Part shown: positions 18,459-21,464 of the stretch, one piece after another
How positions within the stretch are numbered: the stretch's first letter is position 1
Layout of the letters: each line of letters starts with the position of its first letter
NCBI RefSeq assembly: GCF_003334315.1
Contig: NZ_QOWR01000001.1
Source: Escherichia coli
GTDB taxonomy: Bacteria > Pseudomonadota > Gammaproteobacteria > Enterobacterales > Enterobacteriaceae
Reading direction: 5' to 3' (one strand)
Length of the DNA: 64,000 bases
Program-made: the position numbers and the translations under genes
Notes under the pieces: model-generated
Told to the model about the DNA's origin: nothing
Seen by the model: the letters and a program-made list of their open reading frames with translations, nothing else
Database searches by the model: none

Positions 18459-19799
18459 TTAACTCAACAGCTGGAACGCAATCATCCCAACGATGGCACC
18501 GACAGTGCCGAGAATGGTTTCCATCATGGTCCAGGTTTTCAGCGTTTCGGCTTCGGTCGCGCCGGTAAATTTACCGAACAACCAGAAACCAGCGTCGTTA
18601 ACGTGGCTGACAACAATCGAACCACCAGCGATACAAATCGACAGTGCCGCCATTTGCGCACCAGAGTAGTTCAGTTGTTCAATGACTGGCATCACCAGTC
18701 CCACCGCCGTTAAACAGGCTACGGTGGCAGACCCCTGAATGATGCGCACTGCAGCGGCCAGCACGAAGCAGGTGATAGCAATCGGCAGGCCCATGCCGGT
18801 TAACGCTTCGCCCAGTGCCGGACCTACGCCAGAGTCAACCAGCACCTGTTTGAACACGCCGCCCGCACCAATCACCAGCAGAATGATCCCCGCCGGTTGC
18901 AGCGCGTGACCGCAAATCTCCATCACTTTGTCTTTTGGCATGCCCTGACGCATCGCCAGGCCATAAATCGCCACCAGACAAGCAACCAGAATCGCGGTAA
19001 ACGGATGACCAATAAACTCGAACCATTCGTAAGCGGTAGAGCCTTCTGGCACAAAACGCGCGGCAATGGTTTTCAGCCCCACCAGCACCAGCGGCAACAG
19101 GATCAGCGACAGGCTGAATCCGAAGGACGGCATTTTGCCTTCGCCGAGATGCGGTTCGCTGATGTCGTCAGGAATATGCAACTCCACGTAACGGCTGATG
19201 AAATTACCCCACAGCGGCCCGGCAATAATCATTCCCGGAATTGCCGCACACAGGCCAATCAGGATCATCCAGCCAAAATCGGCGTTCATCTGCGATGCCA
19301 GCAGCATTGGCGCTGGCCCTGGCACCAGGAACGCCGCCGCTGCCGCCACGCCTGCGAATAATGGGATTACCAGCTTCACCAGGTTCGTACCGGTGTGGCG
19401 CGCCATTGAGAAAGCAACGCTAATCAGCAGAACAATCGCCACTTCAAAGAACAGCGGTAGCGCACAGACCAGCCCCGCAAGGCCGATGGCATAATGCGCG
19501 CGGCTGTGACCGAAGGATTTGAGCATTTTGACGGCAATCTGATCGACTGCGCCGGTTTCATGTAAGATCTTGCCAAACATAGCTCCCAGGGCGACAACCA
19601 CCGCCAGGAAGCCGAGGGTGCCTCCCATCCCTTTTTCCATCGTCGCTGCGATTTTATCGAGCGGCATACCGGAAAAAAGGCCAGCCCCCATGGACACCAC
19701 CATTAAAGCCAGGAAAGCGTGCATACGCGCCTTCATGACTAAAAACAGCAGCAGTAAAACAGACCCTACTGCTGTTAAAACAAGCGTTAATGTAGTCAC
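18459..19799 (-). CDS. gntU: gluconate:H+ symporter GntU (GntP family, low affinity)
   Basis: 446-aa polytopic membrane ORF MTTLTLVLTAVGSVLLLLFLVMKARMHAF... Confidence 0.92.
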   Translation of the reverse strand: MTTLTLVLTAVGSVLLLLFLVMKARMHAFLALMVVSMGAGLFSGMPLDKIAATMEKGMGGTLGFLAVVVALGAMFGKILHETGAVDQIAVKMLKSFGHSRAHYAIGLAGLVCALPLFFEVAIVLLISVAFSMARHTGTNLVKLVIPLFAGVAAAAAFLVPGPAPMLLASQMNADFGWMILIGLCAAIPGMIIAGPLWGNFISRYVELHIPDDISEPHLGEGKMPSFGFSLSLILLPLVLVGLKTIAARFVPEGSTAYEWFEFIGHPFTAILVACLVAIYGLAMRQGMPKDKVMEICGHALQPAGIILLVIGAGGVFKQVLVDSGVGPALGEALTGMGLPIAITCFVLAAAVRIIQGSATVACLTAVGLVMPVIEQLNYSGAQMAALSICIAGGSIVVSHVNDAGFWLFGKFTGATEAETLKTWTMMETILGTVGAIVGMIAFQLLS

Positions 19800-19802
19800 T
19801 AC

Positions 19803-20330
19803 TTATTTGCCTTTTTTAATAACCTCAATGGTGCTTGCCACAACACCTTCCAGCGGTTGATCGATATCCACCACCAGTACATCAGTTTCGTCCGCACCCG
19901 GCTCCTGCAGCGTTTCAAACTGCGTCACCAACATTTGGGTTTTAAAGAAATGGCCTTTGCGCGCTTTCAGGCGGCTTTCAATCACGTCAAAATCGCCTTT
20001 CAGGTAGATGAAAGAGAGATTCGGATTACCTTCACGCAGCAAGTCGCGATAGTGTTTTTTCAATGCAGAACAGACGATCAGTGACACTTTATTAGTGCGC
20101 TGCATAGCAAACGCGGCGTCGTTCAGCGCCTGCAACCAGGGTTTGCGATCGTCGTCATTCAGCGGTTCGCCAGACGCCATTTTTTCGATATTGCGCCGTG
20201 GATGGAGGAAATCGCCATCAAGAAACGCGGCATGAAGTTGATGCGCCACTTCACTGGCGACCGCAGATTTGCCGCTGCCCGATACGCCCATCAAGACGTA
20301 AATGTGGTGATCATGGTTAGTCGTGCTCAA
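19803..20330 (-). CDS. gntK: gluconokinase GntK (thermoresistant), TTG start
   Basis: Track ORF 19803..20351 starts at a TTG; the recognised N-terminus MSTTNHDHHIYVLMGVSGSGKS (P-loop) begins at an internal TTG at 20328-20330, read here as the initiator. Confidence 0.85.
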   Translation of the reverse strand: MSTTNHDHHIYVLMGVSGSGKSAVASEVAHQLHAAFLDGDFLHPRRNIEKMASGEPLNDDDRKPWLQALNDAAFAMQRTNKVSLIVCSALKKHYRDLLREGNPNLSFIYLKGDFDVIESRLKARKGHFFKTQMLVTQFETLQEPGADETDVLVVDIDQPLEGVVASTIEVIKKGK

Positions 20331-20468
20331 AGTGGTGCCCCCACAATACAAGAATTAAAAATGTTACGGGTAACTGTTATCGGTAACATTGTCCAGCCGG
20401 ACAATATCAGAAGCAATATCCATCCGTGCCTTAAGTGTATAAGTGTGAGCTACTTCAAATTTGTAGGC

Positions 20469-21464
20469 TTAAATAGATCCGCCCGGTGACAAGGTGAAAC
20501 CTAAATCTAACATTTTCGGTGTCACAGATTCGCCACGAATACGCGCCAGCAGGCGTTCAGCGCCAATACTGCCCATCCGCTCACGCGGCGTCAGTACGCT
20601 CGCCAACCGTGGTTCCATCACCTGACCAATGTCATGACCGTGGAAACCGGCAATCGCCATATCGTCAGGAACTTTTAACCCCAGACGCTGGCATTCAAAC
20701 GCCGCGCCGACCGCCAGGTCATCATTAGTACAGAACACGCCATCCAGCTGCGGATATTCCCGCCTCGCCTGGCGAATCAGTTCAATACCGGAAGAGTAAG
20801 AAGAAGATTGCTCAACCATCACGCTATATGGCACCAGGTCTGCATCCAGCATCGCCTGTTCGTATCCCTTCTGTTTGATGATAGTACGTTCGTCGAGACG
20901 TGCGCCGAGATAAGCAATGTGGCGATGCCCGCGAGCAATAATGGCGGTGGTCATCTGGCGTGCCGCTTCAAAGTTATCAAAACCGACGGCAATATCGAGG
21001 CACGGCGACTTGCTGTCCATCAACTCCACCACCGGGATCCCCGCCACTTCAATCATCTTTAAGGTGCGTGGCGTGTGAGTACGTTCGGTGAGGATCAGTC
21101 CGTCGATATTCCATGAGAGCATGGATTCGAGACGTTCTTGCTCCATTTCCGGTTTATAACCGTAGTGAGCCAGCATGGTCTGATAACCGTGCGCGTCGGT
21201 GACGCTTTCGATTCCGCGTAATACTTCCGCGAAAACCTGGTTGGTGAGAGAAGGTAACAGGACGCCAATCGCCCGGCTGGTGGCGTTAGAGAGGATATCG
21301 GGCGCACGATTGGGAATATAGCCCAGTTCATCAAGAGCCGCGGCAATCTTGCCGCGTAGAGCGACGGAAACCTGCTCCGGGTTGCGTAAAAAACGGCTGA
21401 CCGTCATTTTGGTCACGCCTACACGGTCAGCCACATCCTGAAGTACGGGTCTTTTCTTTTTCAT
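20469..21464 (-). CDS. gntR: LacI-family gluconate repressor GntR
   Basis: 331-aa ORF MKKKRPVLQDVADRVGVTKMTVSRFL..., N-terminal HTH plus periplasmic-binding-like fold. Confidence 0.93.
   Translation of the reverse strand: MKKKRPVLQDVADRVGVTKMTVSRFLRNPEQVSVALRGKIAAALDELGYIPNRAPDILSNATSRAIGVLLPSLTNQVFAEVLRGIESVTDAHGYQTMLAHYGYKPEMEQERLESMLSWNIDGLILTERTHTPRTLKMIEVAGIPVVELMDSKSPCLDIAVGFDNFEAARQMTTAIIARGHRHIAYLGARLDERTIIKQKGYEQAMLDADLVPYSVMVEQSSSYSSGIELIRQARREYPQLDGVFCTNDDLAVGAAFECQRLGLKVPDDMAIAGFHGHDIGQVMEPRLASVLTPRERMGSIGAERLLARIRGESVTPKMLDLGFTLSPGGSI

Follow-up and report, generated by a model that had tools for sequence, protein, structure and literature searches.

The gntK gene of Escherichia coli, in the 64,000-nucleotide stretch of DNA that we analysed (hereafter the window), very probably begins at an internal TTG codon, 20330..20328 on the minus strand, and this start is an ordinary one that is already annotated. 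The gene lies in a mechanically derived open reading frame of 182 codons that reads MYCGGTT-L-STTNHDHHIYVLMGVSGSGKS…, in which the eighth codon, written as leucine, is the TTG in question; read directly, its surroundings are …gtgggggcaccact TTG agc acg act aac…. A sequence-only reading of this region had proposed that gntK initiates at TTG and that its recognised N-terminus falls on the internal codon, with the TTG at the head of the open reading frame adding only seven residues. The last point is accurate to the base (20351..20349, adding exactly MYCGGTT), and the first two are borne out below by annotation, structure, family model, Shine–Dalgarno (SD) sequence and cross-species comparison. 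Two further candidates lie downstream in the same frame, namely the first in-frame ATG, which encodes Met14 (20291..20289), and the TTG of Leu13 that adjoins it, so that four codons compete for the role of initiator (Table 1). That two in-frame TTG codons stand 21 nt apart is unremarkable by chance; what is non-random at the internal TTG is the SD match before it and a conservation boundary located at that very codon. The 182-residue open reading frame is a mere artefact of longest-ORF logic.

Table 1. Positions of gntK, its candidate start codons, its neighbours and the elements of the gntR–gntK spacer in the window. Duplex energies are for pairing with the anti-SD sequence.
Feature	Position	Strand	Details
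gntR, LacI-family gluconate repressor gene	20469..21464	−	Immediately upstream of gntK; ORF list and RefSeq
CRP-like site AAATTTGAAGTAGCTCACACTT	20441..20462	−	17/22 positions of the CRP consensus
Inferred sigma-70 promoter	20388..20416	−	−35 TTGCTT (20416..20411), 17-nt spacer, −10 GACAAT (20393..20388)
Tandem palindromic operator AATGTTACCGATAAC-A-GTTACCCGTAACATT, presumed GntR sites	20360..20390	−	Inverted repeat; 15-nt arms, 87% complementary
In-frame TAA closing the frame upstream	20355..20357	−	Stop at −66 from the Met14 ATG
Mechanical ORF, opening with TTG	19803..20351	−	182 aa; translation MYCGGTTLSTTNHDHH… (ORF list)
Upstream in-frame TTG, judged a non-start, in the 5′ UTR	20349..20351	−	Opens the mechanical 182-aa ORF; duplex +0.6 kcal/mol
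SD element GGGGG	20338..20342	−	7 nt before the gntK TTG
gntK initiation codon TTG, decoded as fMet	20328..20330	−	Eighth codon (L) of the 182-aa ORF; duplex −8.4 kcal/mol at about 6–7 nt spacing
gntK CDS, most likely extent (thermoresistant gluconokinase)	19803..20330	−	175 codons plus TAA stop
Leu13 TTG	20294 (first base)	−	Duplex +0.6 kcal/mol
Met14 ATG	20291 (first base)	−	Duplex +1.2 kcal/mol
Met14 and P-loop GVSGSGKS (residues 15–22)	20265..20291	−	
gntU, gluconate transporter gene	18459..19799	−	GTG start; ORF list and RefSeq

A 901-nt query spanning the region matched 5425 of 5426 complete E. coli genomes and was 100% identical to strain CP53, in which the match covers the annotated features gntR, gntK and gntU. 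RefSeq gives gntK a length of 528 nt both in CP53 and in K-12 MG1655 (b3437), and this interval maps onto the 175-codon extent in the window. The K-12 gene (b3437, NP_417894.2, GNTK_ECOLI, 1KNQ) is the same gene with the same TTG start and SD context, the stretch GTGGGGGCACCACT-TTG-AGC being identical in K-12, and the neighbourhood yhhW-gntR-gntK-gntU-yhgN is common to both. Compared with K-12, the window carries only strain-level substitutions in the gntR–gntK spacer (for example, gcctacaaa versus gcccacaaa, and ggcacgg versus ggcatgg).

The protein evidence places the N-terminus at the same codon. Residues 1–175 of the GntK chain in PDB entry 1KNQ correspond to residues 8–182 of the open reading frame with 175/175 identity (E = 3e-115), and five further PDB entries carry the 175-residue chain (MSTTNHDHH…). 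Position 1 of the NCBIfam equivalog profile NF008583 likewise falls on residue 8. The protein scored 372.3 bits against this profile (cutoff 265) and 241.5 against the TIGR01313 subfamily model (cutoff 113.75). For NF007336, the profile of the paralog IdnK, the score was 183.9 against a cutoff of 304; since NF008583 is exceeded and NF007336 is not reached, the protein is GntK rather than IdnK. A Walker A motif of the form GxxGxGK[ST] is present near the N-terminus (GVSGSGKS, residues 15–22 of the 175-residue protein), and from its identity to the characterised protein this GntK would be expected to phosphorylate D-gluconate in an ATP-dependent manner.

The TTG start is thus already known, in that the reference annotation and the crystal-structure sequence both use it. 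Because the RefSeq annotation and the NCBIfam model are mutually dependent, and because the PDB chain is a recombinant construct, annotation, chain and family model do not prove the native N-terminus. A search of the accessible literature yielded no N-terminal or initiation-site data bearing directly on gntK, and gntK/b3437 was absent from the supplements of TetRP (PMC4909307) and TRAINSPOTTER (PMC13245402). Repressed as it is by GntR, gntK probably has too low an expression level in standard media to be seen in initiation or N-terminomics datasets.

Exact-sequence look-ups indicated how the start has been called in deposited genomes. The 175-residue form occurs on at least 1000 contigs and is also the form in RefSeq and UniProt (GNTK_ECOLI), while the 182-residue form occurs on 25 contigs from GenBank submissions of O157:H7 (for example, ACI35719.1), with strains TW14588, EC869 and EC4115 among them. 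A record from E. albertii TW07627 holds a 163-residue form that begins at Met14 and is named shikimate kinase. The caution in the sequence-only reading that non-ATG starts are often misannotated therefore applies to a minority of deposited genomes, which still carry wrong gntK starts (182 or 163 residues), but not to mainstream annotation, which is already right.

To compare starts across species, we scanned species-representative genomes with a start-blind DNA pattern anchored on the P-loop codons (MGVSGSGKSAVA), which returned at least 120 loci; Salmonella was not among the matches listed. By tblastn, gntR upstream and/or gntU downstream was detected at 93 of the loci listed. Among these matches, 89 of the 93 syntenic loci have a start codon placed exactly 39 nt ahead of the P-loop Met, namely TTG in 33 (34 with the window) and ATG in 56. 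TTG is found in Escherichia, Citrobacter, Enterobacter, Klebsiella, Kosakonia, Leclercia, Lelliottia, Kluyvera, Phytobacter, Pluralibacter, Pseudocitrobacter, Pseudescherichia, Superficieibacter and Silvania (the TTG clade). ATG is found in the more distant Enterobacterales and in a few Enterobacteriaceae (Trabulsiella, Cedecea, Shimwellia and Mangrovibacter), the genera including Erwinia, Pantoea, Mixta, Proteus, Providencia, Morganella, Xenorhabdus, Photorhabdus, Hafnia and Edwardsiella. In Trabulsiella and in Enterobacter sp. R1(2018), the MSTTNHD… N-terminus is encoded from an ATG, which identifies the homologous codon as the initiator.

The ATG-start orthologs share the gntR-gntK-gntU synteny and the homologous start position, with an SD 6–10 nt upstream; they differ from the TTG group in the start codon itself and in an SD that is on average slightly weaker. 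An SD precedes the start codon in all 89 TTG and ATG loci among the matches listed, and its mean energy there is −7.9 kcal/mol in the TTG group versus −6.8 kcal/mol in the ATG group, a comparison that ignores phylogeny. Six Serratia and six Gilliamella loci encode gluconokinases 57–77% identical to E. coli GntK that have an ATG 33 nt, not 39 nt, before the P-loop Met and an N-terminus two residues shorter. Most of these copies lack the gntR-gntK-gntU order; one Serratia locus has gntU downstream, and another has gntR and gntU both upstream. Hafnia paralvei has three P-loop-matching loci among the matches listed, and two Serratia species have two each.

Within the TTG clade, coding-type conservation starts exactly at the internal TTG. 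This codon is invariant in all 31 unique sequences, and over the 12 codons after it the per-site entropy is 0.15, 0.12 and 0.67 at codon positions 1, 2 and 3, a low/low/high profile that is classic for a protein under purifying selection. The 21 nt that precede the TTG give 1.43, 1.25 and 1.14, with no periodicity, and nothing but the G-run of the SD is conserved there. Just 7 of 34 TTG-clade sequences have TTG at the position of the upstream TTG, and the two Pluralibacter loci have a stop codon there (TGA in a Pluralibacter MAG, TAA in P. gergoviae); in 16 of the 34 there is no in-frame alternative start between the internal TTG and the preceding stop. The start codon lies between 18 and 75 nt from the conserved operator half-site TTACCCGTAAC in the 34 sequences (32 nt in E. 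coli), and the remainders of this distance modulo 3 are spread 17/9/8, so that indels in this spacer ignore the reading frame. Given the lack of coding-type conservation, the frame-breaking indels and the poorly kept upstream TTG, the seven extra codons are untranslated leader, and the extension of the mechanical open reading frame is non-coding 5′ UTR.

These comparisons make it highly improbable that translation from the upstream TTG yields a 182-residue GntK with a MYCGGTT extension. In its favour, the E. coli frame is open from position 20351, the longer form has been deposited for several O157:H7 genomes, and, provided that the promoter is correctly inferred, the codon is probably part of the mRNA. 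Against this, apart from its poor retention and the frame-breaking indels, the upstream TTG has no SD (Table 1), the operator of the Enterobacter cloacae group ends only 20 nt before the true gntK start, and the extension lies outside both the family model and the solved chain. Just as hard to credit is the use of both TTG codons, in Escherichia only, to give a major 175-residue and a minor 182-residue form. SD-less UUG codons can support low-level initiation, and the upstream TTG is kept in E. coli, E. albertii, Citrobacter koseri and a few others, but dual use meets the same counter-evidence, and the presence of the codon in close relatives is explained by shared ancestry, with no sign of selection on the extension.

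The ribosome-binding site points to the internal TTG as well. For each of the four in-frame candidates, we calculated, as a duplex energy, how strongly the preceding 20 nt pair with the 3′ end of 16S rRNA (Table 1). Only TTG 20330 has an SD, an anti-SD element 5–10 nt upstream of the TTG as in SD-led UUG initiation; of all 5,814 start-like triplets in the window, only 1.4% attain −8 kcal/mol. Folding of the mRNA leader did not discriminate between the two TTG starts: the predicted fold is weak (−9.1 kcal/mol), and the SD and both TTG codons are about half accessible.

The same calculation bears on initiation at Met14 or the adjacent Leu13 TTG, which would give a protein of about 162 residues and which we regard as the least probable of all the readings. 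Met14 is the first in-frame ATG, and the E. albertii TW07627 gene call begins at the homologous Met, but neither codon is preceded by an SD. Moreover, the 31 unique sequences conserve the 12 preceding codons, with wobble at the third position, and these codons are hence translated. Such a start would also delete the conserved HH[IV]Y[VI]L stretch directly before the P-loop, which belongs to the solved chain and the equivalog model and which we take to be the first β-strand of P-loop kinases.

The genes gntR, gntK and gntU follow one another on one strand, an order also seen in 75 comparative loci with both neighbours among the matches listed, and 138 nt separate gntR from gntK. The tandem palindrome at 20390..20360 is presumed to be a GntR operator pair; its core is essentially invariant, with few single-base changes, in 34 Enterobacteriaceae sequences. 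The GntR operators were reportedly mapped by Izu et al. 1997 (J Mol Biol 267:778). The two hexamers of the inferred promoter, TTGCTT and GACAAT, were picked out by eye and are conserved across the TTG clade; a consensus promoter scan returned no minus-strand promoter in the gntR–gntK spacer, the inferred promoter being below the scan threshold. From this promoter, transcription would start near 20381, giving a predicted 5′ UTR of about 50 nt. Three bases of the −10 hexamer also belong to the first operator arm, in which the inferred transcription start is located. In reporter assays, P_gntK was repressed more than fivefold by GntR (PMC13386637). As both TTG codons are on the predicted mRNA, the start would be chosen by the ribosome-binding site and not by transcription.

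Other features of the spacer vary among relatives. The CRP-like site, which the TTG clade conserves, has its centre about 71 nt upstream of the predicted transcription start; in two Kluyvera loci an 11-nt insertion next to it repeats the adjoining ATTCACTT motif. In Klebsiella oxytoca and K. spallanzanii, about 45 nt are inserted between the GntR operator and the ribosome-binding site of gntK, and the operator-to-start distance is 75 nt.

At the other end of the gene, the gntU GTG at 19799 begins only 3 nt after the gntK stop; in the Enterobacter cloacae group its counterpart is TTG. Within the first 17 or so codons of gntU, a hairpin CAGCAGTAG…CTACTGCTG (about −16 kcal/mol) is followed by CTGTTTTT (19774..19749, minus strand), and hairpin and T-run are kept in nearly all of the 30+ Enterobacteriaceae loci examined. 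The arrangement looks like an intragenic attenuator or terminator between gntK and gntU. An attenuator of this gntK–gntU kind is reportedly described in the gnt papers of 1996–97, and the gluconokinase enzyme itself is said to have been purified by Izu et al. 1996, in FEBS Lett 394:14.

Taken together, the 30S subunit would be positioned by the GGGGG element (20342..20338), and fMet-tRNA would initiate on the near-cognate UUG at 20330..20328 to produce the 175-residue MSTTNHDHH… gluconokinase. The native N-terminal peptide expected from this start is (f)MSTTNHDHHIYVLMGVSGSGK, or STTNHDHH… once Met is removed, and the upstream TTG, left unused, would fall within the untranslated leader, downstream of the GntR operators and ahead of the ribosome-binding site. 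About 3% of the known genes of E. coli have UUG as their start codon, which supports initiation at 10–100% of the level seen with AUG (Hecht et al. preprint, 10.1101/063800). Initiator-tRNA decoding and SD positioning are alike in gntK and in other UUG-initiated E. coli genes (10.1101/063800), and nothing sets gntK apart from them. UUG, as a weaker start codon than AUG, probably holds GntK translation to a moderate rate.

The distribution of start codons suggests that the gntK TTG derives from an ancestral ATG and was then kept invariant in at least 14 core Enterobacteriaceae genera. Among the matches listed, the outgroup Enterobacterales (Erwiniaceae, Morganellaceae, Hafniaceae and others) have ATG at this codon, and in the genera with TTG it has stayed invariant while nearby synonymous sites diverged. 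A derived TTG paired with a somewhat stronger SD might mean that selection keeps GntK translation submaximal or IF3-sensitive, an idea that we put forward only tentatively and consider somewhat less probable than its negation.

For E. coli itself, these results confirm the reference annotation of a textbook gene and have little significance beyond housekeeping. More generally, a start-blind comparison across genera, anchored on the P-loop, settles start-codon cases of this kind cheaply. If selection on translation is indeed at work, the weak start could balance kinase against transporter within the gntKU transcript, and the conserved, apparently derived TTG is a possible small test case for selection on start-codon strength.
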